Source: a virus (Duplodnaviria; Caudoviricetes). Taken from it: DNA of 51,492 bases. The stretch covers positions 1 through 51,492 of the IMG/VR virus record IMGVR_UViG_3300037851_000466. One strand, given 5' to 3'. Both the position numbers and the translations under genes were made by a program. This document shows, one piece after another, positions 1,900 through 51,492 of the stretch (the first letter of the stretch is position 1; each line of letters starts with the position of its first letter). The notes beneath the pieces were generated by a model. That model did no database searches. It worked only from the letters and a program-made list of their open reading frames with translations, and had not been told where the DNA came from.

Positions 1900-1905
1900 G
1901 CGGTA

Positions 1906-3435: not shown

Positions 3436-3508
3436 GGCTTGATACGCTCCATTGCGCGAATAGCGCGCCACGGAATGTTGAGCATAAGCGCCTCCAGCCG
3501 GACACCTT

Positions 3509-4798: not shown

Positions 4799-4806
4799 GT
4801 GTCCTC

Positions 4807-4941: not shown

Positions 4942-4956
4942 TTGCTCTCCTTCTGT

Positions 4957-19183: not shown

Positions 19184-19486
19184 ATGCAATACTTCACAAA
19201 GAACGGTTTCGTCGATGAAGTGACGGACATCACCCTTGCCAATGAGATTAATCCTCTTGTTGGCGAGCAGGCTCGTATGGTCAAGGATTGGCGCGACGAG
19301 CTATGGGCCAACGGACGACCGGGCATCAACGGCCGGTATGTTGGAACCGAGAATGGGACAGTCGTTGGGAAGGTTCCTTATTGGATGGCTATGATTCTGT
19401 CCAACGACCCCGATATCGCAATGGACCCCCATGGGGTCGAGAAGTGGTTGGCGAAGCATCCCGAATGGAAAGTTGGTCAATCTTAG
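19184..19486 (+). CDS. Hypothetical protein downstream of the capsid gene
   Basis: GAGG RBS; VGKVP...KWLAKHPEW. Confidence 0.75.
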   Translation: MQYFTKNGFVDEVTDITLANEINPLVGEQARMVKDWRDELWANGRPGINGRYVGTENGTVVGKVPYWMAMILSNDPDIAMDPHGVEKWLAKHPEWKVGQS

Positions 19487-34800: not shown

Positions 34801-37528
34801 GACGGTTCCGGCCGCTCTTGCAAACTCGTTCATCAAATTCAAGGTCCGGGCAATCGACCAAGCATTGAACATCACTGAGGACATTTCAGCCGCGCCAACG
34901 GAAGTCCGGCAGCTGAGCGTTGCGCCCCCCAAACGAGTTCGTGACCTAATGGTTCTCTATGAGAATGCATTGGATGCGAACAACCGGGCGTCCTTGCGGC
35001 TAGCGTGGAGCGCGCCATTAAAGGACGAGACAACCAACGAGAATATCTCGGCGTATAGCGTTAGGGTCTTCACTGTTCAGCCGACAGGTGAGAATTTCAC
35101 CACTGCTGGAGTCGAGGTAGCGGCTGCAACTGGGCTGAATGCAACACCGGGCACCGGCTTTACCAACGATGTGACAGACCTTGAACCGAATACCAAATAC
35201 TGGTTCGCCGTTCGCACGCAGAGCGCGTCGTCCGGGTGGAGCGAAATCAGCATCCCCGTAACGACATGGACACCCATTCCAAACACGGGAACGGTTAACC
35301 CAAATAAGCATCCATTCCCGCACATCTTCATCATGTATCCGGGGTGTAATGACTGGCAAAATAAAAACTGCCCCTCGCTAATTACGTCGGCGGGTGCGTT
35401 GAAGACAACGGCAGCGGATACTATCGCGCGGTTCCAACTAGCGATGCTCATGCCGAATGCGTTCCTTGGGCCGCACTACACAACGGGTGGGGCGGCGAAT
35501 GCGGGCAACAATGCGGACTCGGCAGCCCTTTATGGGGCGCTCCATGCTAGGATTCGTTCAAGGAATTCAACGGCTACCATCTTTGGGTATGACCATACGG
35601 GTGCGACATACGGGCCGTATGTTCCGGGGGATGACAGCACAACCATTCCAGCGCATAACTGGCGGAGGATTCAGGCTGCCGTTGGTGGGCCCGGAGACTG
35701 TATGTGTGCGACCCTTCAGTCGGGCGGCTCAGGAAGCGCAGGGGCTGTCAAGGGACGGCCAACATGCTATCACTCGGCATGGCGTAATGACAATGGAGGT
35801 GGGGCCTATCCTGATTCCTGCATGTCTGGCTCTCAGTGGTACAACATCAATCGGGCGCACCGAGATACGGTGACGGGAGATTACACTGTTGAGGAAGCTA
35901 AGTGGACGTTAATTGGCGAGGTCTTTAATGGCCTCAGGAGAACAACGAATCCAGCATCGCCCAAGATGTTTGATGGCATCTCGCAGGACCTTGCTGGGAT
36001 GGTCGATGATAGCGTCAGTGCGTTGTTGGGGGTGGATGACTTCGTTAATCAGAACCAGCTAACGGGATATGTTGATACGGACCCGGGCGCAACGGATAAC
36101 CGTCGTTGGCAATTCTATAGGCACTATAGGAATGCCTTCAATCTTGGTACGCGCATGTCACGGAACAGTCTCGACATGCCACGAATCTTCAATCCATTGC
36201 CCGCAGGTACGGCTGACTATCATCTATGGAATGGGTGGGTTTATGAGGGTTGGCCGACCGCGCAAGGCAGCGGAAGCGTAACGACAGATGCTAACTGGAA
36301 CTCGTCGGTCTACGCCATTAGAAGCACTCAACGAGCGTTGCATCCGAAGGGCTACTTCCGACCCGGCCTCTCGGGGTTGGAGTACCATGGCGATAGGAGC
36401 TATAACCAGTACCATCTCTTGATTGGGTTGGGCACTGGACCCCCTAGTGGGACGACCGCAACGGATACAACGACCGCTGCGAACCGGAAGAGCAACCGCT
36501 TCGGCCTTGGAACCGCTAGCCTGTTTAATGGGCTCTACTGGCAGTGGTACGCCGGTGGCTCGTGGGGCGGGCCCAATGTGTCGGCGGATTGGGGCAAGGT
36601 GACGTGGGAGGAGAACTGGGTCAATACAAACGGCACTGCGGACGGCACTAGTCACGGTTGGCTAGGGGCCGCTATGGGACGTTACTGGTCAACCATTGCT
36701 GGAACCTCTCTAACGAACCTGCTCACAACGGCAGTCACTGATACCGGCTTTGAGACGGGGACCTTGGGCGCAATACCTAATGGTTGGGCGCGCACGCAGA
36801 CCTCAGGAACGGTTGGAACCAGCACGGACACCGTGGCTCCTGTTGGTGGGGGTAGCCGCAGCCTTAAGGTTGTGACGACCACCACCTCTGGAGGGAATGC
36901 CTATGATGTCAGCTTCCGCCTTCGGGCTCCTGCTAGCTGGACAACAGTGAATAATGGTAACGGCTTGACCCTACGGTTCTGGGCCAAGACAACCGACTTG
37001 CCTAAGTACTTCTATGTTCTTCTACGGGATTCATCTACGGGGGCTCCTCCTGGCACGGGCGCGCAGGCGGGTGTTTGGGCGGATACTATCTGGCGGCAGC
37101 ATACAATCACGTTGTATAACAACGTTGGGACTAATCAAAGCGACTTGTATCCAGCCTTCTATCTGGGCGATACTGTCGGCACATGGTACATCGACAACAT
37201 CACTGCCTATGCCACGGAGGCGGCTATCTACGGTCGCCACTTTGAGAATGGCATGGTAGTCGTTAACCCGACTGACGCTGCCCAGACCTATGTGTGGGCG
37301 GATGATGGTTATGACTATAAGAGAATCAACGGCAACTGGCGGGACGCTAATTGGGTTAATGATGGGTCGCTGGAAACCGACAGAAGTATCACCGTTGCAT
37401 CCTACGACGCGGCGTTCTTGATTCGGCGTCCCGACGGCGGATGGGACGTCACTGGCGGCGGAAGCCGCCGCAGCAAGTGGTGGCGGTGGTGGGGCACGGG
37501 TTCAACCACTCCTACCCCAGCTAAGTAA
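31832..37528 (+). CDS. 1898-aa secreted multidomain protein: beta-helix, Ig-like repeats, FN3, putative glycoside hydrolase, CBM-like domain
   Basis: Signal peptide (APAQA/ATYYV); beta-helix NNTIV/YNIL; PxGGE repeats; FN3 DLEPNTKYWFAVR; FDGISQD and RHFENGMVVVNP; GFETG...LRFWAK...YIDNI CBM-like segment. Confidence 0.8.
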   Translation: MLKSLLKGIAAAATALVLLAAPAQAATYYVSETGDAGNDGSDCNNGKTMAWFNANAVAGDVAIICDGTYTTMPNPTNAGTGWLLSQRITYVGNLSDTTSGGVVLNGTLTMSDNYVTVKGVRVRDGINFSADGCSLAYISSSTLSYGAGADNNMLANAHLYVATTAGSQINWTVDSGYDSIYNSRIQAGAYTASSGGTKWWDSPNNGTYRRYHVFNRVRFLIDNFAPTSDSYAIILYSYNHAKFTDCYFRFASNHSRSTPANSIYGVALRDSSVYQTWKRDTIHVTYVGGTGGTHAFDFHNGTLAATAQGLVMDSCWIQNDASGGQHAVNMYAGGVDSITIKNSVIVNTGDGRAINFAANVDYLTLTNNTIVAYGGNPIGMENGYATNMAFSYNILYQGTSGTCNGGRVPMRGNSSATGTSNYNLFYEVGDDNGREYTQGYGVCRDDTWRWPATANTHEANTKWASPMFQDSSESTFDPRPRSNSAALGTYWSGSPVGFAGARGDTVEAGPNDPPEVTAVSTEDPTPVAQGVASDIQWTATDDVGVSYVYIWISYDGGSTYSRLTNNEANDGAYEYTWPTADTDVRVKVSVFDAEGLGDSLETSNFTVSDQTLPTVSLTTPDGGESWNEGQGRSIVVTLTDNVEVTAVSLWYSDDDGANWTNISHGEDAQAWYLWSVPLVATTQTDFRIKVWATDAANNQAGDSSTTAFTVNDTSNVLPILIAPNGGENWEAGSIQNIHWRPDNLTGSWADYEWSFSGNSGSSWTTIENTRLSGRDPLPDSLYGWTVPSYTSTTMKIRIRTIGPSGAAVQSDSSDADFNIVDTTPPSVVPLLSDPIRLCDENSIYLGGADNVAVTSYNVYYQVGAGDWTTLAAGVSGGTTALNWQPGNTVSYGNGENIRVRVAAYDAQGESASVTTAYSEAFDNIGPTTTFIYPNGGEILMVGDVTALQWSAQDCIWEEANDIALYYALGPGYDSWQVITSITDNDGSYSWTVPAALANSFIKFKVRAIDQALNITEDISAAPTEVRQLSVAPPKRVRDLMVLYENALDANNRASLRLAWSAPLKDETTNENISAYSVRVFTVQPTGENFTTAGVEVAAATGLNATPGTGFTNDVTDLEPNTKYWFAVRTQSASSGWSEISIPVTTWTPIPNTGTVNPNKHPFPHIFIMYPGCNDWQNKNCPSLITSAGALKTTAADTIARFQLAMLMPNAFLGPHYTTGGAANAGNNADSAALYGALHARIRSRNSTATIFGYDHTGATYGPYVPGDDSTTIPAHNWRRIQAAVGGPGDCMCATLQSGGSGSAGAVKGRPTCYHSAWRNDNGGGAYPDSCMSGSQWYNINRAHRDTVTGDYTVEEAKWTLIGEVFNGLRRTTNPASPKMFDGISQDLAGMVDDSVSALLGVDDFVNQNQLTGYVDTDPGATDNRRWQFYRHYRNAFNLGTRMSRNSLDMPRIFNPLPAGTADYHLWNGWVYEGWPTAQGSGSVTTDANWNSSVYAIRSTQRALHPKGYFRPGLSGLEYHGDRSYNQYHLLIGLGTGPPSGTTATDTTTAANRKSNRFGLGTASLFNGLYWQWYAGGSWGGPNVSADWGKVTWEENWVNTNGTADGTSHGWLGAAMGRYWSTIAGTSLTNLLTTAVTDTGFETGTLGAIPNGWARTQTSGTVGTSTDTVAPVGGGSRSLKVVTTTTSGGNAYDVSFRLRAPASWTTVNNGNGLTLRFWAKTTDLPKYFYVLLRDSSTGAPPGTGAQAGVWADTIWRQHTITLYNNVGTNQSDLYPAFYLGDTVGTWYIDNITAYATEAAIYGRHFENGMVVVNPTDAAQTYVWADDGYDYKRINGNWRDANWVNDGSLETDRSITVASYDAAFLIRRPDGGWDVTGGGSRRSKWWRWWGTGSTTPTPAK

Positions 37529-39371: not shown

Positions 39372-39410
39372 CAAAATGGGAGGGGGCAAGCGCCCCCTCC
39401 CATTATTTTG
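39372..39410. terminator. Bidirectional intrinsic terminator between the convergent arms
   Basis: AATGGGAGGGGGC-AAGC-GCCCCCTCCCATT stem, A-rich upstream and T-rich downstream. Confidence 0.85.
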
Positions 39411-39889: not shown

Positions 39890-40150
39890 CTACCCCAATG
39901 AGATGTCGTCGTCGGAAAGTAGCTGGGAACCTTGAGGCACAGTAACTCTCGCAGCCGTTTCATTCTTCGCAACCGCACGCTTGACCTCCTCCTCAATTAG
40001 CGCATCCAGCGCAGCGAGTAACTTGCTTGCCATAACTGTTGCGATAACGCTCTTCGCCGTCTCCGTTCGGATAGCCCTATCCCGATAATCCATGTAGAAC
40101 TTGAAGGCGACAAGGGCAGTCAAGCAGATGATTCCAACTGTTACTTCCAT
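39890..40150 (-). CDS. Small membrane-anchored protein
   Basis: GGAGG RBS; N-terminal TM. Confidence 0.6.
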   Translation of the reverse strand: MEVTVGIICLTALVAFKFYMDYRDRAIRTETAKSVIATVMASKLLAALDALIEEEVKRAVAKNETAARVTVPQGSQLLSDDDISLG

Positions 40151-42459
40151 GGGACCTCCTCCATCTCTCCCCAATTCTTACCGACCTTCAAGGCGGTGGG
40201 GCATTTAAAGCCGGGCCGGATTTGGGGCCACTCCCTCTCCATTTCCTCACGAACGGCCGCCGCACCTTCCCTCAAAGATACAGTCGGAAGCTCTACGAGG
40301 ACCTCATCATGGACTGTCAATAGGAGCGCACCACCAAATTCCGACACGGCTTTATCAACCCCTCGCAATACTCCCCACATCACATCGGCGGCCGTTCCCT
40401 GAATCAGCGTGTTAATCGCCGCTGTCTGCCGCTTCTTCCTATCATAGAAGTATCGCTTCCGCTTGAATGGGTTGGTCACCGAACGGTCACCCTCACCCGC
40501 CCGCCGGATGATATGCGCCCGCAGCCTTGCCGCCTTGACGAACGCCTTATCAAAGTAATCCAGAAGCTGCTGGCATTCTGTCTGCGGAATCATATACCCA
40601 TGGGCTAGAAGCTGCCGCCTGAGTGTGGGCGCACCCCCACCATACGACCAAGTGAAGAACGCTACCTTGGCCCTTGTCTTATCCACCTTCAGCCGGTCCA
40701 TGTTATAGGCATGCAGCCCATTATCAATAGCCTGCTGAAGTACATCATCATTAGCCAGCGCGGCTAGAATGCGGGGCTCAATCTGATTGAAGTCCAGCGC
40801 CCCCAACACCATCCCTTCTTCATGCGGTATATAGAGCTTCCTCGCCTCTTTGTGCTGCTGTTGCGCGTTCGGGTTCTTCGCCGTGATGCGGCCCGTACCC
40901 GCGATGCCGCGCCCAAAGGAGTCGTCATCCTTTCCCGCCGGAAGAAACGATGGATGGATGCATCCATCTTCGCCAACGCCCGCGCCTGCATACGTTGCCA
41001 TATCCTTGTTGACTCTTCGCATCTCAAGGATAAGCTCAAGAGTTCGACGCTCAGGCGCATCTGCCGGTAGGTCAACATTCATTAGCTCCTGAATAGCCTC
41101 GGCATCCGTTGTGATAACGCCATACTTCGTAAACTTGATGGGCAGCCCCATATCATCATAGAGCAGCTTCCGAAGCTGATACGGGCTCTCAGGGTCAATA
41201 TCCCCATGCCGCCCATTCCACTCCATGAGCAGCTTCATGCCATCCTGCGCAAGCCTCTGCGTCCATTCGGCTCGGCGGGGCATGTCGATGCGGACGCCGC
41301 GCTCGCTCATGTCAATCAGCACGGGGATGGTGGGCATGATGGTGCCCTCAAAGAGGGGCTTCATGCCCTGAATCTCAATGTCTTTCCGCAGCTTCAGCCC
41401 AATCTCTAGGGTTCGGGCAGCGTCAAGGGCATTATAACGGGCGGGTTCGGCATCGGAGAGATGCTTCCACCGTTGCGTATCCAGATACATGCTCGCAACT
41501 GCGTTAAGACCTTTGTATAGGTCGGGCTGGAGGAGGTTGGCCGCGAGCATCGTGTCGAATAGCGGGCCCTTGATGTCAATGCCTGTCTTACGAAGTCGGG
41601 GATAGTCATAGGCTAGGTTGTGCGCGAACTTCGTCACGCCCTCCATCTCCAACATAATCTTTGTGTGGGCCCGTGCATCATGGTCCCAACGGGCTGACCA
41701 CACTTGGATGTCATCCGACACCAAACTGCGGTCATACGCCATGCCAATACGGGTGACGATGTTCGTCATCTCCGTCTCGATGTCGAAGGCTAGGGCCCCC
41801 GTCATCTCATTCAGGAACGGCGTTTCCGTGAACGCATTGCAGACCTGTTCCGGCTCTGCGCCCCCCGCGAGACGCGCCGCCCGCCTGACATCCGCTTCAA
41901 ACGCCGGGAGGGTGGCAAAACCCGTTCGCATGACTGCGGCGGGGTGGATGGTTGCGACGGTGACGTATCGCTGGCCCTCGTTGCAGGGCGGGTAGCAGAA
42001 TTCTTTCCTCTTAACTTCCTTCGGCTGTCCCTTCTTTTTACCGCTCTTGTATACTCCTGACTCATGATGAATTCGGCAAGGTCGCTGGAATTCGGCTGGC
42101 TGAATGAGGTATCCACGCCAGTTCTCGATACCGACCAGACCTGTGTATCGGGAAAGGGCATCGCCCCCGAGACAAAGGACAACATGGCCTGTGAAGGCAC
42201 GCGCCGCTTTGTCGAACGCTTCCCACCACTTGTCTTGTTGCACTGGCGTGATTTTACCTTGCTTGCCATCCGGAAATTCTCCAATCACATTCAGGATATA
42301 GCAGTCGCTCCGGTCAATGCCTTCAAGGCTAAGAGCGGTCCATAGCATGGTCCCGCTCTTGCCGACGAAGGGCTTGTCTGCCTTGAGTTCTTCTCTACCG
42401 GGCGACATGCCGATGACCATCAGCTTGCTATTAGGGTGACCGTCAACATGACAACTCAT
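40141..42459 (-). CDS. polA: Family A DNA polymerase with N-terminal uracil-DNA-glycosylase-like domain and 3'-5' exonuclease
   Basis: UDG-like GMSPGREE...PFVGKSG...HPAAVMR; exo AFDIET/AHNLAYD/YNALD; pol DFNQIEPR, AKVAFFTWSYG, TVHDE. Confidence 0.93.
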   Translation of the reverse strand: MSCHVDGHPNSKLMVIGMSPGREELKADKPFVGKSGTMLWTALSLEGIDRSDCYILNVIGEFPDGKQGKITPVQQDKWWEAFDKAARAFTGHVVLCLGGDALSRYTGLVGIENWRGYLIQPAEFQRPCRIHHESGVYKSGKKKGQPKEVKRKEFCYPPCNEGQRYVTVATIHPAAVMRTGFATLPAFEADVRRAARLAGGAEPEQVCNAFTETPFLNEMTGALAFDIETEMTNIVTRIGMAYDRSLVSDDIQVWSARWDHDARAHTKIMLEMEGVTKFAHNLAYDYPRLRKTGIDIKGPLFDTMLAANLLQPDLYKGLNAVASMYLDTQRWKHLSDAEPARYNALDAARTLEIGLKLRKDIEIQGMKPLFEGTIMPTIPVLIDMSERGVRIDMPRRAEWTQRLAQDGMKLLMEWNGRHGDIDPESPYQLRKLLYDDMGLPIKFTKYGVITTDAEAIQELMNVDLPADAPERRTLELILEMRRVNKDMATYAGAGVGEDGCIHPSFLPAGKDDDSFGRGIAGTGRITAKNPNAQQQHKEARKLYIPHEEGMVLGALDFNQIEPRILAALANDDVLQQAIDNGLHAYNMDRLKVDKTRAKVAFFTWSYGGGAPTLRRQLLAHGYMIPQTECQQLLDYFDKAFVKAARLRAHIIRRAGEGDRSVTNPFKRKRYFYDRKKRQTAAINTLIQGTAADVMWGVLRGVDKAVSEFGGALLLTVHDEVLVELPTVSLREGAAAVREEMEREWPQIRPGFKCPTALKVGKNWGEMEEVPWK

Positions 42460-43105
42460 CAAACCTCCGAATGATACCTTCATCAAGATGATGCATGATA
42501 ATGGTGTCGAAGATACGATAGGGATGGTTCACCATGCAGTTCGCTACAATCACAACATCTCGGGAATGAGCGTCGGGCTCACCCTCACGCCACCATCCAG
42601 TCTCATTAAGGATGGTAGGGCTGGTTACTAGCCCAACACCATTACCGTTCATCTGGACGGCTGTACCATCATGGTTGTGAAGGAGAAAGCGGATGATGTT
42701 CACGCTTTCCTTTGGAAGGTTCGATGCCAGGGTCAATCCCTCCACGGTGAGCAAGCAATCTTGGTCAAGATGGACAACGAGGTCGCCCTTCGCCCGCTCA
42801 AGGGCGAACTGGCGCTGCCGATTACCTGCCACATTCGTCTGGGGGCCCTGATAGCTGAAGATGCGGGGGCCGACAGGAAAGCGCTTCCACGGGCAGGGCC
42901 CGTCACTGACGATAATCCAGTCATAATCGACGCCGGATGCGTCAATGATAGGCTTGTTCGCGTGGAGGGTGCTGGGGCGTGAGGCGACAATTGGTGAGAT
43001 GATGGTAATCTTTGTCGGCCCCACGCCCATGATAAATGAAGGTCCGCCCGTGTTATAGGTTGCTGGGTCCATCCATGTTGGAACCTTACTCTTCGGACTG
43101 CTCAT
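42443..43105 (-). CDS. GT-A (GT2-like) glycosyltransferase
   Basis: WIIVSDG, GNRQRQFALERAKGDLVVHLDQD. Confidence 0.8.
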   Translation of the reverse strand: MSSPKSKVPTWMDPATYNTGGPSFIMGVGPTKITIISPIVASRPSTLHANKPIIDASGVDYDWIIVSDGPCPWKRFPVGPRIFSYQGPQTNVAGNRQRQFALERAKGDLVVHLDQDCLLTVEGLTLASNLPKESVNIIRFLLHNHDGTAVQMNGNGVGLVTSPTILNETGWWREGEPDAHSRDVVIVANCMVNHPYRIFDTIIMHHLDEGIIRRFDELSC

Positions 43106-43280
43106 TCTTGCTCGCCTCCGGGCCAATACCAAGGTTTCCAGCTAGAATGTCAATGCCATCAAGAGCGTCTTGAATCTCGGTGCGGAGGTCAAAGATAAGT
43201 TCCGCAACCTCGTCCTCAGTATAGCGACGGACCTTCTTCGGGGCCTTCTTCACTGCCTTCTTTTTAGCCATTATTCCCAC
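43086..43280 (-). CDS. Small protein with basic N-terminus
   Basis: MAKKKAVKKAPKK; gene chain. Confidence 0.6.
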   Translation of the reverse strand: MGIMAKKKAVKKAPKKVRRYTEDEVAELIFDLRTEIQDALDGIDILAGNLGIGPEASKNEQSEE

Positions 43281-43660
43281 CTTCCGGTTAGGACCAACAT
43301 CCCAATGAGCCCGTAGTCAGCGATGTCCTGCACAGTGTCATACAGGGGCTCGTTTGCAGGCTCCTCTTCCTTGTTCAACAGGTTCGTCAGACGGGCCAGC
43401 TTATCGTCCAGCCTGACAGTGATGCCCTTCAGACCGTGGCGTTGGATGTTCTCACTGCCATAGTCCTTCTGCTTCAGGCAGAAGGTGGCGAAGGTTCTCA
43501 TTGCCATCTCCAGCCATGCCATCTCAAGGTCCGGCTTCCCGCTTGTCCCTAACTGGGTCTGGATTGTGACGCCACCGCCGGTTGAGATTTGAATAGTCCA
43601 ACTGATACCGTTGTCGTGCTTGACACCATCTTTGAAAGAGTTCGTCATCGGCATCCTCAC
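43271..43660 (-). CDS. Nucleotide modification associated domain 1 (DUF1599/Nmad1-like)
   Basis: KQKDYG, GITVRLDDKLARL, EPLYDTVQDIADYGLI. Confidence 0.85.
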   Translation of the reverse strand: MRMPMTNSFKDGVKHDNGISWTIQISTGGGVTIQTQLGTSGKPDLEMAWLEMAMRTFATFCLKQKDYGSENIQRHGLKGITVRLDDKLARLTNLLNKEEEPANEPLYDTVQDIADYGLIGMLVLTGRWE

Positions 43661-44082
43661 AAGGTGACTCTGCCCTTAAAGTCTCCATCCTTCCCTCGCT
43701 GCATCTCCGCTCGATAGCGCTTGGCTAGGTCCTTACACCAGACTGTCCGCCCATTCTCATCAATGATAAGCGTATCGTTAACGATAGCATCTAACTTCAT
43801 GGCTAGCTGTTCGGCGTCGGAAAGCTCCATCTTCCGGCGGGGGCGGCGGGAGCGGGCACTACGTTCAATGGTTCGGCGGCACTTATTGCAGAATAGCATC
43901 TCCGGCGTGCCCCAGAAAAGATAAGGGCAGCCTTTCGTTTTACAATGCTTCGACTTTGGAATCCAATAGTCCTTCGGTAGGTCGGGCACGTCTTGCCGGT
44001 TCCAATCCTGCCCACGCTCCCGTCTGACCTTCCGCATGGTTCGTCGGCGCTTGGCTGCTGATTCGGGGCTATGGCGCGGCAT
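43657..44082 (-). CDS. Basic protein with zinc finger
   Basis: CKTKGC...FCNKC. Confidence 0.65.
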   Translation of the reverse strand: MPRHSPESAAKRRRTMRKVRRERGQDWNRQDVPDLPKDYWIPKSKHCKTKGCPYLFWGTPEMLFCNKCRRTIERSARSRRPRRKMELSDAEQLAMKLDAIVNDTLIIDENGRTVWCKDLAKRYRAEMQRGKDGDFKGRVTL

Positions 44083-44587
44083 CGAGCTTACTCACAGCCA
44101 CTCGTTCAATCGCCCGCATCAACCTTTTAATGGCATAGGGCGGAACGCGACCGGCCTTCTTCTTTGCGATGTTAAGTGATAGAGCAATGATTTGCATGTT
44201 TCCTTCGACATACCCCCGGTTGGAGTCAATGCGGTCAATCGATAGCGAGTCTCCAATTTTCCTTAAAGTTTTCAAGGAGATGCCCGTAACGGCACATCTC
44301 GTGCTTGGACGGCGGGTCATTCTTTTGAACATCTTATAGAGGATGAGGTCCATCTCTCTATCCGGATACTGGGCCTCACGTCGGTCGGAACGGCAGTCCG
44401 TACATTGACGAAAGCCTTGGGTGGCACTGCCACAACGGGTGCAACGGCCAGCTTCACGCCAGCGGTTCCGTTGCTTCTCCCTACCCTTCCGAAACCTCTC
44501 CGCGCACTTCTCGCACGTCTTCATGCCCTCCCGGGCTTCGTTCTTGCACTGCTCCTTCCGGCCGTTCATCGCTTGGCACTGGGTCAT
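44069..44587 (-). CDS. HNH-type endonuclease with N-terminal zinc fingers
   Basis: CAVTG...SIDRIDSNRGYVEGNMQII...NIAK; several CxxC. Confidence 0.85.
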   Translation of the reverse strand: MTQCQAMNGRKEQCKNEAREGMKTCEKCAERFRKGREKQRNRWREAGRCTRCGSATQGFRQCTDCRSDRREAQYPDREMDLILYKMFKRMTRRPSTRCAVTGISLKTLRKIGDSLSIDRIDSNRGYVEGNMQIIALSLNIAKKKAGRVPPYAIKRLMRAIERVAVSKLDAAP

Positions 44588-45014
44588 ATTGTCCCATAAG
44601 TTGGTCGGCTGCCGCCCTAAGCTGTTGTGCAATCTCAATCGCAATGCGCTTCTTGATATCGTTAAGGGCAACGGCCGATAGTTCAACTCGATTACCATCT
44701 AGATACGCCACCCCTGTATCCAAATCAACGCCGGACAGTCGGCTGGGGGCGGGCAGCGGGATGAAGCTCCCGGGGTCGCCTTGAATCTGGACGACAGCGC
44801 CGGGGCTAAATGTCGGCACTTGTTCAGATGTGCCGACATTTAGTGGCGCATTCAGGCCGGGGATACGGGGGCCCATGGGGGCAGGCCCGGATAGAGCCTG
44901 CCCCATGCCCGCATTCTCCCGCCGCGCCATCGTGGGTGGGGTGAATTGAAACTCGCCCTCCTCCAGTCCGTTGTCGGGGGCGACCCACCCTGCATGGGGG
45001 AACGGGACTCCCAT
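44481..45014 (-). CDS. Hypothetical Pro/Gly-rich protein
   Basis: GGAGG RBS; TAATG overlap with the upstream gene. Confidence 0.6.
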   Translation of the reverse strand: MGVPFPHAGWVAPDNGLEEGEFQFTPPTMARRENAGMGQALSGPAPMGPRIPGLNAPLNVGTSEQVPTFSPGAVVQIQGDPGSFIPLPAPSRLSGVDLDTGVAYLDGNRVELSAVALNDIKKRIAIEIAQQLRAAADQLMGQYDPVPSDERPEGAVQERSPGGHEDVREVRGEVSEG

Positions 45015-45541
45015 TAGCCCTCCGAAGGATAGAAGCGGCTGGTTTCCAACTGCGTCTCGCCGTTCTTGTTCTTATACTCGCGCGCCTTGACACGGACCGT
45101 CTTGCCCAGAAGCTCGCTCTCATCGGGCGAGAAGAGGACCGTCAGGTCGCTATAGTCCTGTGGGTCAGCGCCCAGCGAACGAATGAGGCTGGTCACGCCC
45201 TGAAGGTTGCGACGGCTCATGTCATGCTTGGGATGGTTGGTGTTCGACAGAGCCTCGGGCACGATGAAGAAGCGCTGCCACTGCTTCTTGCCAATCTGCT
45301 CCGTATGCTGGCTGTCGGGGTTCACCTGAAGGACGACGAGAAGCTGCATCATCGTCGGGTCCTTGTCGTTCATCTTTGCGCCGACCTCAACGATGTCGGC
45401 AACCTCGTACCACTCAGCGCTCTCCCGCGCCGTACCGGCATTCTTGACGGCAGCATCCTCCGGCCGCCGCCAGCCGGGCCGCATCTCGTCTTCGATTTCC
45501 TGAAGGAGCTTAGGGGAGACGCTTAGGGTGGGCAGACTCAT
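45014..45541 (-). CDS. Putative single-stranded DNA-binding protein (DUF669-like)
   Basis: Follows the AAA_24 gene; ELLGKTVRVKAREY. Confidence 0.6.
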   Translation of the reverse strand: MSLPTLSVSPKLLQEIEDEMRPGWRRPEDAAVKNAGTARESAEWYEVADIVEVGAKMNDKDPTMMQLLVVLQVNPDSQHTEQIGKKQWQRFFIVPEALSNTNHPKHDMSRRNLQGVTSLIRSLGADPQDYSDLTVLFSPDESELLGKTVRVKAREYKNKNGETQLETSRFYPSEG

Positions 45542-46383
45542 TGCTTTGCCTCCTTAATGACTGAATCATACTGATGCCAGAAGTGAACGGGGTCAACTTT
45601 AAGCTCGACCACCGGCATAGGATTGCCGCCGGATGACCGTAGCTTGGGGGCGCACCAAATTCCCTTTGGTGCAGTGTACGCGCGATACTTCAACTCTCCG
45701 CCTTTGCCTGCCATGCCTCCTTCCGTCTTGGCCTCCAGTCGAATGACGCTATGGAACATCTGGGCAACGGTTCGGATGCCAGCCTTGCCGACCGTTGCGG
45801 GGCCGCCAAAATAGGCTTCACCGGCAGCGCCCTCGGGGTCGAAGATGGCTTCATGGAAGATGCCGACAATGTGCTTGCCGCTGTTCTCAAGGAACTTGAG
45901 GATGCGGGCAATAGAGAAGTGGGCCGCACCATAGTCGCCCTGCATGGGCATGGCTAGCTTACCGGCGCCCTTGCTCTCGATGATGACGTGCTTGTCGGAG
46001 AAGCGACCACTGTTGGCAATGGCCTGAAGGAGGTCACCAGACCAGTAGGTCAGGGTGTCAAGGATGACGGTTCCAACGTCGGGCATGTTGGGAAGCTCGC
46101 CCGTGATGAAGTCCACCATCTCCTGATATGGGTCAAGCTGGCCCTTGTTATCGGTAACCAGCTTGGCAACGATGAGGTTGTCCTTATCCTCAGGGATGGC
46201 GGAGGGAAGGCCCTCACTGCCGGGGTCAAAGGCGAGGACGAGGGCCTTTGGGCCGTACTTCTTGGGGTTCGCACGGACAATGGAATAGGCAAGGCGAGAC
46301 TTCCCTGTCCCTCCTGCGCCCATCAAGCAGATGAATTCCTGTTGGGGTGCTGGTTCCAATGAGTCATAGACTTTAATCGGCAC
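45538..46383 (-). CDS. AAA_24 / Sak4-like recombination ATPase
   Basis: GAGGTGKS, TVILDTLT, QGDYG, GIFHE. Confidence 0.8.
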   Translation of the reverse strand: MPIKVYDSLEPAPQQEFICLMGAGGTGKSRLAYSIVRANPKKYGPKALVLAFDPGSEGLPSAIPEDKDNLIVAKLVTDNKGQLDPYQEMVDFITGELPNMPDVGTVILDTLTYWSGDLLQAIANSGRFSDKHVIIESKGAGKLAMPMQGDYGAAHFSIARILKFLENSGKHIVGIFHEAIFDPEGAAGEAYFGGPATVGKAGIRTVAQMFHSVIRLEAKTEGGMAGKGGELKYRAYTAPKGIWCAPKLRSSGGNPMPVVELKVDPVHFWHQYDSVIKEAKQ

Positions 46384-46458
46384 ATGGCCTCCTATCTGAA
46401 GATTGCCGCCCAACCCAAATAGATGAAGGCGAGAAGGATGATAACTAGGGTGGCGAAA

Positions 46459-47310
46459 TCAGGCTTGTCCATCATGGCGCTGTTGAACGCGGAAAACTTC
46501 AACCGCGATTTTGTTGATTTCATAATCTGATAGCCTTTCGTGGCACATGAGATTTCCCCACCGCAGTAGCTCGATGGTTCTCTCGGGGGACATACCGATG
46601 TCACGCAGGCTGGCGGCGCAGGCATAGGCGTGGCCGTGTCGGGCACCTTTCGGTGCGCCCTGCTCCAACCAGATGCGGGCGGTGACGGTTAGATGCTTCT
46701 CAATCTCCCAGAGATTCGCAGAATCATTGAGAGCAACGGGGGGTGGTGCGGGCTTCTCAATGGGTGGGAGGGGCCCCACCTCATTGATAATCTGCTTAGC
46801 GTCATAGGTAGCCTTGGGGATGCGGCCAATGAAGCCCTTGTTCCCGGTCTTCCAGTTGATGGTTTCTGGCACCCGCGCGAGGCGGGCGACATCGCAGACG
46901 GTTTGGTCGGCTGCGGGGGCGTGCTTGGCGAGGAAGGCCCGGACAACCCGGGGCCAGTCCTCAGGGACATCGGGGCTAAGGATAGGGATGATAAGCTGCA
47001 CGCCTCGGCCGGTCCAGATTGCTCCAGCATTGCGAAGCCATAGGTTCAAAGAGGTTTCCTCAATGAACTCTTGTGCTTCCTCTTTGGTAAAGAGCCTGTC
47101 GTAATCGACAAGGATGCCGGAAACATGGTCAACGTCTGATGCCCGGACTCTGCGATGCAGCTTCTTCCGGGGTGGGTTGATGTTGAAATAGATGTCCCAC
47201 CCCAGCTTGTTCAGCTTGTCAATGCCCGTCTGGAAGGCGATAACGTGCTTGTCCTTCTTGGCAACAAGGTGAAGATACTGGAAGCCAATAAGGAATTCAT
47301 CTCTAGACAT
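46459..47310 (-). CDS. RepB-like (AEP superfamily) primase with PriCT-like C-terminus
   Basis: YFNINP, ILVDYD, WTGRGVQ, DVARLARVPETINWK, GARHGHAYACAASL. Confidence 0.82.
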   Translation of the reverse strand: MSRDEFLIGFQYLHLVAKKDKHVIAFQTGIDKLNKLGWDIYFNINPPRKKLHRRVRASDVDHVSGILVDYDRLFTKEEAQEFIEETSLNLWLRNAGAIWTGRGVQLIIPILSPDVPEDWPRVVRAFLAKHAPAADQTVCDVARLARVPETINWKTGNKGFIGRIPKATYDAKQIINEVGPLPPIEKPAPPPVALNDSANLWEIEKHLTVTARIWLEQGAPKGARHGHAYACAASLRDIGMSPERTIELLRWGNLMCHERLSDYEINKIAVEVFRVQQRHDGQA

Positions 47311-47899
47311 TTTTCACGCTCATGACGTGGGGTGTGATGGTCACGAGGATGTCCTCCCCGCCGTGGGATAGCCACTCAAACTGCTCATTGCATTCGACGG
47401 CGAAGCGAAGGTCCTCACCAATACCCTTGCCGTCGAAGCGAGCATTAACGGTTCGGGGGACGAGGATGCCGGGAAGGGCCATATCCCGATAGGCTAGGTT
47501 GCCGCCAGCGGCGTTCCAGCCCACCCAAACGGGGAAGGTGTGCATGACATCGGGGCGGACCGTCATAGCTTCATGGAGGCGGTCGATGGCTCCGGTAGTA
47601 TAGATGTCATCGTCGTCAATGAAGCAGACGTGGGTGATGCCCTCAAACTCGGGGTCGTTGTTCTTCAGCATGTCGAGGGCGAGGTTTCTTTGGGCGTTGC
47701 CGTACACCATGGTACGGGTCGCTGTCTCTCGGTACAGGAAGGATTCCCCGTATTCCATTACGAGTTCCTCAACGCCCGGCTGTGGTCCGTCCCCAACGAC
47801 AATCCATTGGTCGTTTTCATGAAGGGTGGACGCAGCGCTATCCAATGTGCGACGAAGGGTCAGACGGCCAATGGTTGGTGTGACAATCAACAGGCTCAT
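47303..47899 (-). CDS. GT-A (GT2-like) glycosyltransferase
   Basis: IVTPTIGRLTL, WIVVGDG, YGNAQRN, FIDDDD, GED. Confidence 0.85.
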   Translation of the reverse strand: MSLLIVTPTIGRLTLRRTLDSAASTLHENDQWIVVGDGPQPGVEELVMEYGESFLYRETATRTMVYGNAQRNLALDMLKNNDPEFEGITHVCFIDDDDIYTTGAIDRLHEAMTVRPDVMHTFPVWVGWNAAGGNLAYRDMALPGILVPRTVNARFDGKGIGEDLRFAVECNEQFEWLSHGGEDILVTITPHVMSVKNV

Positions 47900-48189
47900 T
47901 CTTCCTCCTCAAAGAGACTCAACTCCTCGTGCTTGATGGGCGCGTGCGCCTCGGCTGGGGGGTCAGGTTCAAAGAACTGCTTATAGTCGTCGTAAATCAT
48001 GTGAACGATTCCGGCATTGCTATTCCGGCAGAACTCAAGGGCCTCCCGTCGAGAGATAAACTGCGGAAGGATTTCAACCAGCAAGTCAACTGGGTGGGGC
48101 TCGTCAATGGCCTGAAGATGCGTCACATCAACATAGGTGCTGTTCACTAGTGCATCAACGAGCTTGGCTAGCTTCTGTCGGTCTGTCAT
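47896..48189 (-). CDS. Hypothetical protein
   Basis: AAGGA RBS, ATGA overlaps. Confidence 0.65.
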   Translation of the reverse strand: MTDRQKLAKLVDALVNSTYVDVTHLQAIDEPHPVDLLVEILPQFISRREALEFCRNSNAGIVHMIYDDYKQFFEPDPPAEAHAPIKHEELSLFEEEE

Positions 48190-48374
48190 AGTTCCTTATC
48201 CGGGTTGCACTTCTTAAAGGCACGAGTCATGACGGCTTCATATGTGTTCTCACCCAAAGCGCGGCTCTCGGCGTAGGCGGCTTCCTTCAAAGGATAACAG
48301 GTTAGGCAGCACAAGCCCATCATACCTTCTGGCATTGGCTTGCCGCACCAAAAGCATAGAGGCTCGTCTGTCAT
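48186..48374 (-). CDS. Small zinc-finger protein
   Basis: CFWC...CLTC. Confidence 0.65.
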   Translation of the reverse strand: MTDEPLCFWCGKPMPEGMMGLCCLTCYPLKEAAYAESRALGENTYEAVMTRAFKKCNPDKEL

Positions 48375-48589
48375 TTTCTCCCCTTGGATGCGCGAGGGCG
48401 CTTAAGGATTCGGGCTCTAACTCGTTGGGCCGCCTTCAGTTGCGGGTCCATCCCCCGACCCCCTCCGCACTCCCGACACCAACTCTCCTCAATGGTGTCC
48501 ATCAGTCGGTAACCGATACCACAATTGCCGCAGAAAACAAAGGGCGCATCCAACGTCATCGCATCTTCCGCAGCCTTTCGCTTGTTCAT
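48371..48589 (-). CDS. Small zinc-ribbon protein
   Basis: CGNC...CREC. Confidence 0.65.
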   Translation of the reverse strand: MNKRKAAEDAMTLDAPFVFCGNCGIGYRLMDTIEESWCRECGGGRGMDPQLKAAQRVRARILKRPRASKGRK

Positions 48590-49360
48590 TCAAGACTGGT
48601 CCTTATAGCGGTTCTCAAGGTTAATGAAGGGCGGGCCATTGATGTCAATGCCCGCATGGCAGGCATCATAGTATTGACAGCGACCATAGATGCTATCAAT
48701 GCATTCGTTATAGTTCCGATATACGTCAGACTTATCCATGGTATCAACAATGCGGGCGATGCTTTGTAGTAGACTCTCCTGCTCGTTCCTTGTTCGGGGA
48801 AGGCAAGCGATGACCATCTTATAGCCGTCGCCGTTCTCCTTCAATTGCTTGACCGCAGTTCCAAGGATGGTCCCCCTGTAGGGGAGGTCGCCAATGTTCA
48901 AATGCTCACGGTTCATTTGAACGAGATACTGATAGGCGGCTTCATGAAAGGATAATCTAACAGACTCCTGATGATTTGCAAGGCTCTTTCCCTTCGCCAT
49001 GGTCTTCCACTGCACACCCCAAACGCCACCCTTCCGGATGATGAGGCAATCCAATCGGCCCATCATCTCATGCTCCATGAAAGGGGCGACGAGGCTCTTC
49101 TCGACGCCGATGATTTGCCAATCCTTTGGGGTTTCCCAGTTGGCGACAACGTTGCAGAGATAGGGCCACTCACGGTCGGTGTTATCGGCTAGGGCGTATG
49201 GGAGGGGGCGGCCTTCCAATCGGGCGTGCATGTTCTGGTGGAACATATCGCCAAGGACCATGGGCCGACTCTTCCCAACACCACGCATGTGGATGTGTTG
49301 GTTATAGGCAAACTCGGGGCACTTAAGCCATGCGTTCAATTGACTGATAGTGAATCTCAT
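48590..49360 (-). CDS. PD-(D/E)XK exonuclease (RecB/Cas4-like)
   Basis: TISQLNAWLKCP, GDMFH, GVEKSL, GRLD, QWKT, C-terminal Cys cluster. Confidence 0.85.
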   Translation of the reverse strand: MRFTISQLNAWLKCPEFAYNQHIHMRGVGKSRPMVLGDMFHQNMHARLEGRPLPYALADNTDREWPYLCNVVANWETPKDWQIIGVEKSLVAPFMEHEMMGRLDCLIIRKGGVWGVQWKTMAKGKSLANHQESVRLSFHEAAYQYLVQMNREHLNIGDLPYRGTILGTAVKQLKENGDGYKMVIACLPRTRNEQESLLQSIARIVDTMDKSDVYRNYNECIDSIYGRCQYYDACHAGIDINGPPFINLENRYKDQS

Positions 49361-50385
49361 ATCTTCTCCACAAGGGTCCACTGCCCACGCTTGGGCTGAA
49401 CGACTTTCTTGTTCCAACGAAGCCAGCCAATAGCGGCATCTGCCTTCCTTGTGGCGACAGTCTCGTCGCCAACCGTCCCTCTAATGCGGTTGATGAGTTC
49501 GTGGCGGGAGATAGTCTCGCCCTGTTTCCACGGGAGCCATGAGTAGTCAATCTTCTGGGTGGGGGCCTCGCCGTCGGTAGCGAGGAAGGATAGGGCAGGC
49601 TGCTCTCGCGTACCGATATTGTCCATAGTATACCAGATAGGGTCTAGCTCATCTTCGGGTAGGCCACGGACTTTCTCCAATGATAGCTTATACTTACGGA
49701 CTTTGCGATACTTTGACAAGCTCCAGTGGGCGTCGAACCCAGCCGTTAGTTCGCTTGAACCTCGGGCCTTATCCGTGCCACCACTCACCATACCTTGCTG
49801 GGCCTTGCGCTCATGGTGCGCCCAAAACATGGTGAGCCCATAGTGACTCCTTAGCCACTTTAGGTACTCGACCAACGGGGCCATATGCTCGTCCAGCTTT
49901 TCATTCAGGTTATGGAACCTCCGCAAGGTGTCCCAGATAATGACCGTCGGCCCATCGTCCGCCCCCAGCCGTGCCTCAAGGGCAGCAGCGAAGGGGCTGT
50001 CCTCCTTCACACGGCTCGGGGGGCGGGCAAGGAATGATGGGCCGGTTAGCTTACCGTTTGGTTCCAACCACATGAAGCTGTCGCTAATGTCGGGGCTGCC
50101 TAGGCCCCGGTGGACCATGAGAATCTGTTGGTGGTAGTACCATGTGGCGGCGTCATCACCGATGAAGAGACAGCGGTGGGTGCCCTTGACGGAGCGGCTG
50201 CCAAAGACGGGTTGGCCTGTATTCAGGCAGAGCATGATGTGTTTCAACAGCATGGTCTTCCCGGCGCCGGGCGGCCCCGTCACCAGGATGTTCGTCTTTG
50301 CGAGGCACATGCCCTCGATGAGAGGTGGAGGGACACGGGCGTTGGTCTTCACTAGCTCGGGGAGGGAGAGGATTTGCTTATTCAT
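49357..50385 (-). CDS. AAA_25 (RepA-like) helicase
   Basis: GPPGAGKT, IIWDTL, AHHERK, ARGSS. Confidence 0.85.
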   Translation of the reverse strand: MNKQILSLPELVKTNARVPPPLIEGMCLAKTNILVTGPPGAGKTMLLKHIMLCLNTGQPVFGSRSVKGTHRCLFIGDDAATWYYHQQILMVHRGLGSPDISDSFMWLEPNGKLTGPSFLARPPSRVKEDSPFAAALEARLGADDGPTVIIWDTLRRFHNLNEKLDEHMAPLVEYLKWLRSHYGLTMFWAHHERKAQQGMVSGGTDKARGSSELTAGFDAHWSLSKYRKVRKYKLSLEKVRGLPEDELDPIWYTMDNIGTREQPALSFLATDGEAPTQKIDYSWLPWKQGETISRHELINRIRGTVGDETVATRKADAAIGWLRWNKKVVQPKRGQWTLVEKI

Positions 50386-50758
50386 GCGTTTTGCCGTCTT
50401 CATTGGTTGTAACAATTAGCATGCCGTCGTCTCGATAGCGAACTGTAACTGCTTTGTAGGCCCCGTTGTTGAAACGAACGGTAACTGTGTAATCGCCACA
50501 ATCTCCTAGGATAGTTAACCACCATAGCTTTAGGTCTTTTGTGCGGGTAGCTAGTTCAAGTAGAAGCTCCTCATCCCAACCGATGAACTCATCAATTTCA
50601 ATGCCGGGAGTCCACGATGCCTTACAGGAGCCATGGACATATGCGATTACAGCATCGCGGTCAATCACAAGACCGTGTTCTTCGAGAATCGTTGTGACAA
50701 TATCCCTTAATTCGGTGCTGTATAAAAGGCTGGTGCAGGCTACAATACGCTCACCCAT
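50378..50758 (-). CDS. Hypothetical protein
   Basis: GGAGG RBS. Confidence 0.65.
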   Translation of the reverse strand: MGERIVACTSLLYSTELRDIVTTILEEHGLVIDRDAVIAYVHGSCKASWTPGIEIDEFIGWDEELLLELATRTKDLKLWWLTILGDCGDYTVTVRFNNGAYKAVTVRYRDDGMLIVTTNEDGKTHE

Positions 50759-50793
50759 GGGGCCTCCGGTTGACGATTGTGTAGGTTATGGGG

Positions 50794-51063
50794 TTAAGTT
50801 TGCCCCGTATCACCATTTTCCATCTTGGCCACGATGCGGGCCGCCGACATGTCCAGTAGGACATGCATGTCGATAGTGACCGGCCCTTGCGTCCCCATGC
50901 CGAGATTGACGTCGAGCAATGCAGCCTTTGCCCCCTCCAGCCTGCCCTCGTGGCGTGCGGCCGCGATGGCGCGGTCGATGTAGAACGTCATCGGCTTTGC
51001 GGCTTCCACGCCGTTCGTCGCAACGTCCTCGTCCCACTCGTGCAGTGGCGACACCGTTCTCAT
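50794..51063 (-). CDS. Hypothetical protein (allele B of the gene split by the repeat boundary)
   Basis: First 36 aa identical to 3509-3724, divergent C-terminus. Confidence 0.65.
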   Translation of the reverse strand: MRTVSPLHEWDEDVATNGVEAAKPMTFYIDRAIAAARHEGRLEGAKAALLDVNLGMGTQGPVTIDMHVLLDMSAARIVAKMENGDTGQT

Positions 51064-51263
51064 GGCTTCGCCCCCTCCACAAACTTCCCGCAGCCAGCAC
51101 AATAGGTGCCGCTGGTGGTGGTGTAGGTGTTGATGTGCGGGCACGGCGTCACGCTGTCGGTGTAACTGGCAAGCGCAACCGCGCCCCCATTGCAGCGACC
51201 ACAGGACGGCATGAACGGTGCCCACACAGCACCGCACTTCGGACACACCCACCCCTCGCTCAT
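51060..51263 (-). CDS. Zinc-ribbon protein (repeat copy)
   Basis: Identical to 3721-3924. Confidence 0.7.
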   Translation of the reverse strand: MSEGWVCPKCGAVWAPFMPSCGRCNGGAVALASYTDSVTPCPHINTYTTTSGTYCAGCGKFVEGAKP

Positions 51264-51492
51264 CGTGGCGGCCCCCATATGGCGCGGTAAACGGTGTCAG
51301 CCTTGAACACCGGCTGGTACCCCGATAACCTCACGGTGTCCCTCCCTAGCACGATGACGCGGCGGACGGTGTCGCCGTCGCGCACGTTCTCGACGAGGCG
51401 TGGGTACTCGGGCCTAGGCGTGCAGCACAGAAACAGTAGGCACGCGGCGACAGTCACTCCGGCCATGAAATACAACAGGCCGAATGTCAGCG
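51260..51492 (-). CDS. Small membrane protein (repeat copy, 5' truncated by the window end)
   Basis: Identical to the 3' part of 3921-4184. Confidence 0.6.
   Translation of the reverse strand, partial: LTFGLLYFMAGVTVAACLLFLCCTPRPEYPRLVENVRDGDTVRRVIVLGRDTVRLSGYQPVFKADTVYRAIWGPPR

Follow-up and report, generated by a model that had tools for sequence, protein, structure and literature searches.

What do two glycosyltransferases encoded within a phage replication operon glycosylate? The question is raised by a complete phage genome of 51,492 bp (IMG/VR record IMGVR_UViG_3300037851_000466; CheckV completeness 100%, without terminal repeats), the whole of which we analyzed and refer to as the window. 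Two small genes on its minus strand, which we call GT-A1 and GT-A2 after the GT-A fold of their predicted products, lie directly upstream of, and overlap, the genes for a DNA polymerase and a primase-like protein. A preliminary description made from the sequence grouped these genes with an Nmad1-like gene and the polymerase, which carries a uracil-DNA glycosylase (UDG)-like domain, as a candidate DNA-modification set with no recognizable hydroxymethylase; it also allowed that the two enzymes extend a virion glycan started by a third glycosyltransferase, of the GT-B type. We find that the comparative evidence favors this last possibility, which we hold tentatively and at somewhat less than even confidence: GT-A1 and GT-A2 would be accessory enzymes extending a glycan that is built with a core GT-B on virion proteins. 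The features on which the argument turns are the following.

14844-16793, plus strand: SU10-type portal protein
17969-19135, plus strand: SU10-type major capsid protein (MCP; Pfam SU10_MCP, 3.8e-33), a candidate acceptor of the glycan
19184-19486: small ORF between the MCP and GT-B genes
19496-20833, plus strand: GT-B (GT4-like) glycosyltransferase of the head module (phrog_7162, 1.9e-15)
40141-42486, minus strand: UDG-like/3'-5' exonuclease/family A DNA polymerase (PolA), 781 aa, likely start at 42459 or 42483
42443-43105, minus strand: GT-A1, divergent compact GT-A enzyme (GT2-like), 220 aa, a window-specific insertion upstream of PolA
43271-43660, minus strand: Nmad1/DUF1599-like small protein, matched over its C-terminal 70 aa
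46459-47310, minus strand: primase-like protein (phrog_2478, 4e-6; weak primase-polymerase similarity)
47303-47899, minus strand: GT-A2, compact GT-A enzyme (GT2), 198 aa, with a strong ribosome-binding site; assigned from Pfam, a PDB profile search, AlphaFold2/Foldseek and family alignments A1 and A3

The arrangement of the two genes is as first described: the end of GT-A2 and the start of the primase-like gene share 8 nt, and GT-A1 shares 17-44 nt with the start of PolA, according to which start codon is taken. GT-A2 scores above the gathering cut-off for Pfam Glycos_transf_2 (PF00535; 29.7 bits vs 23.3), and a profile of seven sequences searched against the PDB found TarP as the best match (1.3e-8), followed by RmlT, TagF, and TarS. 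The AlphaFold2 model of GT-A2 (mean pLDDT 70.8, above 85 in the N-terminal, nucleotide-binding half) matched GT-A enzymes throughout when compared with the PDB by Foldseek (GlcAT-I/P, AvpGT, WrtF, and TarP; top E 6e-9), and viral GT-A proteins when compared with BFVD. GT-A1 has no match in Pfam, PHROG, or NCBIfam and does not reach the PF00535 cut-off; phmmer run exhaustively over 1.8 billion proteins returned only GT-A1 itself, two repeat-protein artefacts, and three weak matches (two with GT2), so that by sequence similarity it appears essentially orphan. We place GT-A1 in the GT-A family because it aligns pairwise with GT-A2 (E 5e-6), because it retains all eight invariant residues of the 23-sequence alignment A3 (P38, R43, D68, G69, G94, R98, D114, and D116), and because the Foldseek matches of its AlphaFold2 model (pLDDT 65.6) are GT-A enzymes (ArnC, WrtF, RmlT, and TarS; top E 4e-7). 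In both models the C-terminal third is poorly modelled. The DGP motif is invariant across the 23 sequences of A3, the DxD motif reads DDD in GT-A2 and DQD in GT-A1, and an Asp in the C-terminal part, D163 of GT-A2 and D183 of GT-A1, shows no variation in alignment A1 and a conservation of at least 90% in A3; these residues are probably catalytic. Judged by sequence, GT-A1 and GT-A2 are distant paralogs within one compact clade of ~200 aa proteins, marked by PT..R, (V/S)DGP, GN.QR, and DxD. Neither protein is basic (pI 4.7 for GT-A2, 6.2 for GT-A1), and neither has a membrane segment (19-residue hydropathy maximum 0.8-1.4). The enzymes of known structure that they most resemble, TarP, TarS, and RmlT (PDB 6h1j, 5tze, and 8bz4), are the best profile and fold matches over the nucleotide-binding half and have the same DxD metal site, but these are proteins of 310-620 aa whose oligomerisation/acceptor domains are absent from the 198-220 aa phage enzymes, and identity is 13-18%.

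To place the window among related phages, we compared all of its proteins by tblastn with the loci that carry members of the GT-A clade. One of these, L009, stood out, with a portal match at 29% identity (E 2e-73) and a GT-B match at 30% (E 3.5e-48). The two GT-Bs, from the window and L009, were used as a profile against IMG/VR and gave at least 128 relatives, of which 80 were kept. A GT-B homolog is present in all 81 related loci (tblastn), compared with 70 for the portal, 65 for a 944-aa tail protein, and 42 for the MCP. It is always on the same strand as these head genes (MCP 42/42, portal 70/70) and, wherever an MCP homolog was detected (42/42), its position is 0.46-2.5 kb downstream of that gene. 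The GT-B thus belongs to the core of the head module in an uncultured lineage whose portal and capsid proteins are of the SU10 type. Its family profile matches GT4 enzymes in the PDB (the GT1-family protein 5i45, PglA, and TreT), not the T4 beta-glucosyltransferase. Two of the lineage's GT-Bs, in L074 and L088, match Pfam Glyco_trans_1_2, as does the GT-B that stands beside a GT-A in each of four unrelated loci (L004, L012, L025, and L028). When the window was compared with cultured phages by tblastn, GT-A1 and GT-A2 had no match at all, and the 1184 records that matched PolA were every one below 60% identity; single-protein scans of IMG/VR for GT-A1, GT-A2, and PolA likewise found no close relative. 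A homolog of GT-A2 at 73% identity (P0003) is encoded on a contig of 4.7 kb.

The GT-A genes, in contrast to the GT-B, are found by a family profile in only 8 of 23 whole related records, with more in partial contigs. In seven records, the cassette that holds them is inside the head/packaging operon. The gene order in G001 (45,086 bp, terminal repeats, syntenic with the window genome-wide) is TerL, exonuclease-like, GT-A, portal; in L080 the portal directly follows the GT-A; and in L076/G003 the order is GT-A, DegT, portal. The portal comes first in L074/G002 (portal, GT-A, a conserved open reading frame (ORF) named u173, GT-A, DegT) and in L087 and L088/G004 (portal, a two-domain GT-A protein, epimerase/dehydratase). 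L009/G005 has a sugar island within the structural module: portal, scaffold-like ORF, SU10 MCP, a small ORF, GT-B, a GT4/epimerase-like gene, and a methyltransferase, continuing with two cytidylyltransferases, GT-A, NeuB, and beta-helix tailspikes. In L088, one long ORF seems to join the portal to the GT-A, but this is an artefact of reading frame: translation of the portal stops at 3186, and over the portal the long ORF gives Pro/Arg-rich junk.

The second position of the cassette is the replication operon, where it is found in four relatives (G011, G016, G018, and G024) on the same strand as, and upstream of, the primase-like and/or Sak4-like gene; in G011 and G024, u173 and DegT again accompany it. 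GT-A2 in the window occupies this slot, which thus recurs in four relatives; the slot upstream of PolA does not recur, being without a GT-A in G001 and G025. As small unrelated ORFs stand at that place in these two genomes, GT-A1, the adjacent small gene ORF64, and the Nmad1-like gene are window-specific additions upstream of PolA. Since the cassette is found in two slots, we consider it mobile, and its position does not define its function.

Several genomes carry at least two GT-As (L074, L088, L009, and the window), and L009 has divergent extra paralogs of 229 and 198 aa. The sugar islands vary in content (L009 6003-11744; L074 2705-5549; L088 ~3190-5332; L140 6974-9167), and hold NeuB with two cytidylyltransferases, DegT, epimerase/dehydratase, or u173.

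The company that the GT-A clade keeps elsewhere is similar. Searched with a profile of the clade, IMG/VR yielded 9 loci and metagenomes 34; 20 were scanned with Pfam, the remainder being short or near-duplicate, and the 20 are partly non-independent (L005 resembles L030; L007 resembles L008 and L037; L004 resembles L022). In 15 of the 20, another glycosyltransferase, a sugar-type methyltransferase, or a sugar-nucleotide enzyme is fused to the GT-A or lies within 6 kb, which we take as the signature of oligosaccharide assembly. These partners include GT-Bs of the Glyco_trans_1_2 type (in the four unrelated loci named above), Methyltransf_24 (CmcI-type) fused or adjacent to the GT-A (L003, L005, L007, L016, L020, L025, L037, and L040), DegT (L020), GDP-mannose dehydratase (L006), and a hexapeptide (acyltransferase) fusion (L015). 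In L004, which is outside the lineage, a tail terminator gene is followed by the GT-A and then the GT-B. No such sugar gene was seen in L010, L011, L021, L026, and L043, of which the last three are contigs of 2.4-4 kb. By the same Pfam scan, neither thymidylate synthase (TS) nor TET occurs in any of the 20 neighborhoods, and ThyX occurs in two.

Together, the phage glycosyltransferases are genetically linked to structural genes, the GT-B in the head module of 81/81 loci and the GT-A cassette beside the portal in seven records. We propose that the GT-B would add a first sugar, taken from host nucleotide-sugars, to a virion protein, most likely the capsid protein or a neighboring head protein, and that the compact, metal-dependent (DxD) GT-A1 and GT-A2 would then attach more sugars. 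In relatives, enzymes of this clade travel in a small cassette, often together with another GT-A, a DegT sugar aminotransferase, an epimerase/dehydratase, methyltransferases, or a NeuB/CMP-sugar set, and the cassette lands in one of two permissive slots, next to the portal gene or upstream of the one for the primase-like protein. Because the window's GT-As are in the replication operon, they would be made early and be present once capsid proteins appear. The acceptor, the order of action, and the timing in this scheme are all parts that we infer.

A parallel exists in phages of Mycobacterium, whose capsid and tail-tube subunits bear glycans, as described in PMC12619734 with reference to Freeman et al. 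2023. Those phages resemble the present lineage in having phage-encoded glycosyltransferases, here proposed to decorate capsid or tail proteins, with patchy accessory genes, and the methyltransferases have their counterpart here in the relatives of the window; they differ in belonging to another lineage (SU10-type and uncultured here), and in the core head GT-B and the two alternative slots of the GT-As seen here.

It is important to point out that several observations weigh against glycosylation of the virion. A virion acceptor for the GT-As is deduced only from context, and the function of the GT-B only from family similarity; no glycosylation motif came to light on the capsid protein, although no search aimed at one was made. 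In the window as in G011, G016, G018, and G024, the cassette is in the replication operon and not with structural genes, so that gene position alone gives virions no advantage. Co-occurrence of GT-A and GT-B within the lineage is trivial, because the GT-B is core. Finally, Pyle et al. (bioRxiv 10.1101/2023.12.21.572611) report validated DNA-modifying GT-As, which are also TarP-like, near sugar-modifying enzymes, secondary glycosyltransferases, polymerases, and sometimes structural genes; a setting of the glycan-cassette kind is thus no exclusive mark of protein glycosylation, and context alone is decisive in neither direction.

Could the two enzymes then act on DNA? Known routes usually start from a handle on the base, and the claim that no recognizable handle-maker is present is borne out. 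Six-frame searches of the complete record for TS (PF00303), ThyX (PF02511), and TET (PF12851) gave no match at E up to 1, and Pfam, PHROG, and NCBIfam scans of the ORFs, including alternative minus-strand ORFs of the left arm, found no methyltransferase, TS, or TET; this absence is at the level of hidden Markov models (HMMs), which highly divergent enzymes could escape. In the 23 relatives, a TS homolog is absent (0/23) and a C5-methyltransferase occurs once, in G017, which has no GT-A. TET was found in none of the five relatives searched, a weak negative since control genomes gave no signal for the family either.

The small protein between the two GT-As was described as Nmad1; its PHROG match (phrog_1485, 1.1e-12), together with tblastn matches to annotated DUF1599 proteins, agrees with this, but its Pfam score (PF07659, 22.1 bits) is under the gathering cut-off of 25. 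A search of the PDB with this sequence gave nothing useful, and the literature on Nmad1/DUF1599 that we found consists of passing mentions. Nmad1 had also been taken as a marker of modification loci. In cultured phages, we find it instead next to a polymerase, dUTPase, and ThyX, or among unannotated genes, in ordinary replication and nucleotide-metabolism neighborhoods (in a crAss-like record, for example, beside polymerase, dUTPase, thioredoxin, and ThyX). It occurs in only one of the 23 relatives, G025, and since this genome lacks a GT-A and has the gene just upstream of PolA, Nmad1 tracks the polymerase neighborhood and not the glycosyltransferases. Two further genes had been named as possible sources of a handle.

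4957-5403, minus strand: zinc deaminase, 148 aa, pI 10.7 (Pfam dCMP_cyt_deam_1, 29.2 bits; HAE...PCxxC)
6755-7453: GP88-like ORF

We rejected the GP88-like ORF, as it is too generic for a dedicated handle-maker: 269 records of cultured phages have a homolog, and they span many host groups (238 are Mycobacterium phages, and phages of Pelagibacter, Roseobacter, Rhizobium, and Caulobacter are among the others); our literature search found no description of GP88. The deaminase has the ordinary zinc-deaminase type of motif, in a phage without a thymidylate synthase of its own.

Restriction sites offer a check that is independent of gene annotation. All 27 GATC sites of the window are in 60-3149, where 30 are expected, and none is in 3150-51492, where a maximal-order Markov model predicts 182 (178 over 5501 to the end). 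Eleven 6-bp palindromes with at least five expected occurrences are seen once or never: over 5501 to the end, GTCGAC occurs 0 times vs 15.3 expected, AAGCTT once vs 19.3, and GCCGGC once vs 19.1. ACCGGT is also missing (0 vs 9 expected). Palindromic 6-mers as a group average z = -1.34 to -1.40, and non-palindromes 0.02. The GATC purge is unique to the window among the 15 related genomes compared (121 of 210 expected in G001, 290 of 335 in G025), so it reflects pressure in the phage's own host and implies a host GATC-specific restriction system. The summed observed/expected ratio of palindromes is the same, 0.67, in six GT-A-bearing and nine GT-A-lacking genomes (Mann-Whitney, p=0.61). A phage whose DNA bears blanket base hypermodification tends to keep its restriction sites. 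Type II pressure is visible on this genome, which makes shielding by glycosylated bases unlikely. The avoidance of sites thus appears to argue against a protective or blanket hypermodification, and would be compatible with a sequence-limited or non-protective one.

These results bear directly on the view that GT-A1 and GT-A2 glycosylate phage DNA or a dNTP precursor, either without a hydroxymethyl- or hydroxy-pyrimidine handle or with help from an unrecognized ORF or Nmad1, which we now consider very unlikely. It is suggested by the overlap of both genes with replication genes inside the replication operon, by the four relatives in which the primase-side slot is likewise occupied, by the Nmad1-like gene two genes away, and by the several ORFs without a fold assignment. 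The likeness to enzymes known to act on DNA is also real. According to Pyle et al. (bioRxiv 10.1101/2023.12.21.572611), the validated phage DNA GT-As are GT2-like, resemble TarP (their top PDB match) and JGT, and have R..DDD..EDY/F motifs; GT-A2 is similar in its GT-A/GT2-like fold, its R..DDD..ED-type site, and its closeness to TarP, and the enzymes there are likewise phage-encoded and sometimes beside polymerases, secondary glycosyltransferases, and sugar-modifying enzymes. The same text states that they need a methyltransferase with 5mYOX, or ThyS, and it deems the ~65% of glycosyltransferase contigs without a neighboring base-modification enzyme 'less likely' to act on DNA. In contrast to this published description, no methyltransferase, 5mYOX, or TS homolog was detected in the window, and its restriction sites are purged. 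According to Lee et al. 2026, TS homologs are the source of even 5-hydroxycytosine handles, and such homologs are absent here.

In the classic case of phage T4, the alpha- and beta-glucosyltransferases have the GT-B fold and act on 5-hydroxymethylcytosine provided by a TS-homolog hydroxymethylase. They, too, are phage enzymes that use nucleotide-sugars, and no such handle enzyme was detected here. The lack of TS, ThyX, and TET in the complete record and of a DNA methyltransferase in the ORF scans, the near-absence of handle enzymes from the relatives, the single, GT-A-lacking relative with Nmad1 and the neighborhoods of Nmad1 in cultured phages, the missing GATC sites and palindromes, the equal palindrome ratio with and without GT-A, the cassettes beside the portal, and the pI of both proteins, neither of them basic, all count against DNA as the acceptor, and the proposed DNA-modification set is not upheld. 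We give still less credence to the pair being a replisome-embedded, new route of DNA glycosylation that uses no TS- or TET-type handle, or a handle from an unassigned ORF, possibly with the Nmad1-like protein; given the purge of restriction sites, such a route must be sequence-limited or non-protective.

Of the remaining explanations, the more credible, though we think it unlikely, is that the soluble GT-As, with or without the GT-B, modify a host envelope polymer (teichoic-acid-like, lipopolysaccharide, or capsule precursors) or a host protein, for superinfection exclusion, release, or defence evasion. TarP encoded by a prophage modifies wall teichoic acid, and TarP heads the PDB profile matches of GT-A2, ahead of RmlT, TagF, and TarS; the Foldseek lists hold TarP, RmlT, TarS, ArnC, and WrtF. 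Expression early in infection, as proposed for the window, would fit an act on the host at that stage, and an accessory, patchy cassette (8/23 relatives) is what would be expected of a host-specific function. Against this, GT2 structural likeness says little on the acceptor, the enzymes lack a membrane segment, the cassette is in the late head operon of seven records, and the partner GT-B is a core head-module gene. Moreover, no integrase or lysogeny gene turned up in the Pfam and PHROG scans of the window's ORFs, which makes classic seroconversion unlikely. It is more doubtful that the GT-As are morons with a metabolite, a nucleoside-like compound, or a signalling molecule as acceptor, or that they are decaying passengers without a present function. 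AvpGT, solved with Ara-A, is among the top Foldseek matches of GT-A2, GT-A1 is highly divergent with no family match and a DxD that reads DQD, and the cassette moves between slots; however, both proteins retain every clade-invariant residue in intact frames, GT-A2 has a strong ribosome-binding site, and the recurrent company of GT-B, aminotransferase, and methyltransferase points to oligosaccharide assembly.

To our knowledge, virion glycosylation has been documented mainly for mycobacteriophages. Extension of a virion glycan by the GT-As, if true, would carry it to a new lineage, uncultured and abundant, in which one glycosyltransferase is fixed in the head module and small sugar cassettes are swapped, with compact enzymes of ~200 aa and varied sugar chemistry. 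There is also a lesson for annotation: a glycosyltransferase gene that adjoins one for a polymerase or a primase should not be read as evidence of DNA modification, as sister phages carry the cassette beside the portal. The purge of restriction sites, with zero GATC in 48 kb, provides an independent, sequence-only check against blanket hypermodification.

The genes around GT-A1 and GT-A2 form a tightly packed minus-strand block (39890-51475). The operon runs in the order AAA_25 helicase, PD-(D/E)XK-like exonuclease, three small ORFs, GT-A2, primase-like, Sak4-like ATPase, and ORF175, followed by the HNH/endonuclease VII-like gene, ORF141, Nmad1-like, ORF64, GT-A1, and PolA. Features of this block and its boundary that have not been given above are:

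49357-50415, minus strand: AAA_25 helicase
48590-49417, minus strand: PD-(D/E)XK-like exonuclease
45538-46413, minus strand: Sak4-like AAA_24 ATPase (recombination; Pfam AAA_24, 1.5e-9; phrog_124, 1.8e-15)
45014-45541, minus strand: ORF175, no match in Pfam, PHROG, or NCBIfam
44069-44698, minus strand: HNH/endonuclease VII-like nuclease (phrog_3322, 7e-11; also phrog_3118 and phrog_1035), 38% identical to its G001 homolog
43657-44082, minus strand: ORF141, basic Cys-rich protein of the core replication module, with a homolog at the matching position in G001
43086-43280, minus strand: ORF64, small acidic protein, window-specific
39375-39404: bidirectional terminator with a 13-bp stem, between the convergent late (plus) and replication (minus) operons

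Apart from this terminator, promoter and terminator scans of the replication block found sites to be no commoner than in shuffled sequence. In PolA, the UDG (1.1e-15), 3'-5' exonuclease (2.1e-7), and DNA_pol_A (1.6e-45) domains are in one frame and all above the Pfam cut-offs (phrog_17, 1.5e-87); the architecture is repeated in G001, whose full-length homolog is 43-44% identical, and in G025. The family 4 UDG motif is GEAPG. The UDG-like domain of PolA (the first ~200 aa) has GMSPG in its place, with PMAPG in G001 and GMAPG in G025, and may not be an active uracil glycosylase. The primase-like gene has syntenic homologs (23-27% identity) in G001, G025, G011, G016, G023, and G024; this conserved synteny speaks for the name 'primase' used in the preliminary description, while the PHROG matches are weak (4e-6), and we regard the label as weak. 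The Sak4-like gene is kept in G001, G025, G011, G016, G018, G023, and G024. In G001 and G025, it is followed by ORFs of 181 aa and 175 aa, counterparts of ORF175 with N-termini that look alike by eye. ORF64 has no match in Pfam, PHROG, or NCBIfam and no homolog in G001 or G025.

The plus strand carries the packaging, head, tail, and lysis block, including large tail proteins and an M15 endolysin. The left end of the window differs in composition: GC content is 66-72% in 1-3149 against ~55% elsewhere, or, on a wider view, 63-77% as far as ~4800 and ~52% thereafter. The stretch 1-3149 is compositionally foreign, and nothing corresponds to it in the syntenic G001; either a chimeric join made during assembly or a very recent gain of DNA could account for it. 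Two genes were assigned in it.

424-1899, minus strand: DnaB-like helicase, in the GC-rich left end
1906-2277, minus strand: RusA-like resolvase (phrog_244, 2.5e-10)

Because the RusA-like gene is on the minus strand, the left-arm region is probably read in part on the opposite strand. When the two largest left-arm ORFs without an assignment were looked up in a protein atlas, recognition was low and no match was usable. Within the GC-rich block, the ORF at 4145-4828 (plus strand) encodes Gly-X-Y repeats like those of collagen (Pfam Collagen, 6.5e-8) and matches tail-fibre PHROGs; an alternative minus-strand ORF (4181-4813) overlaps it, and either strand may be the coding one. The 600-aa ORF at 10800-12602 (plus strand) is at the position expected for the large terminase; it has no match in Pfam, PHROG, or NCBIfam, nor by tblastn in the 81 related loci, G001, or G025. 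Between this presumed terminase and the portal region, a small ORF (12599-13138, plus strand) has an RNase H fold resembling PolB exonucleases; it is kept in 35 of the 81 related loci and is directly 5' of the GT-A in G001. At the other end of the late block, a 1898-aa protein (31832-37528, plus strand) with Ig-like and fibronectin-III domain matches, and a weak, partial match in G001, is presumably a tail fibre or spike.

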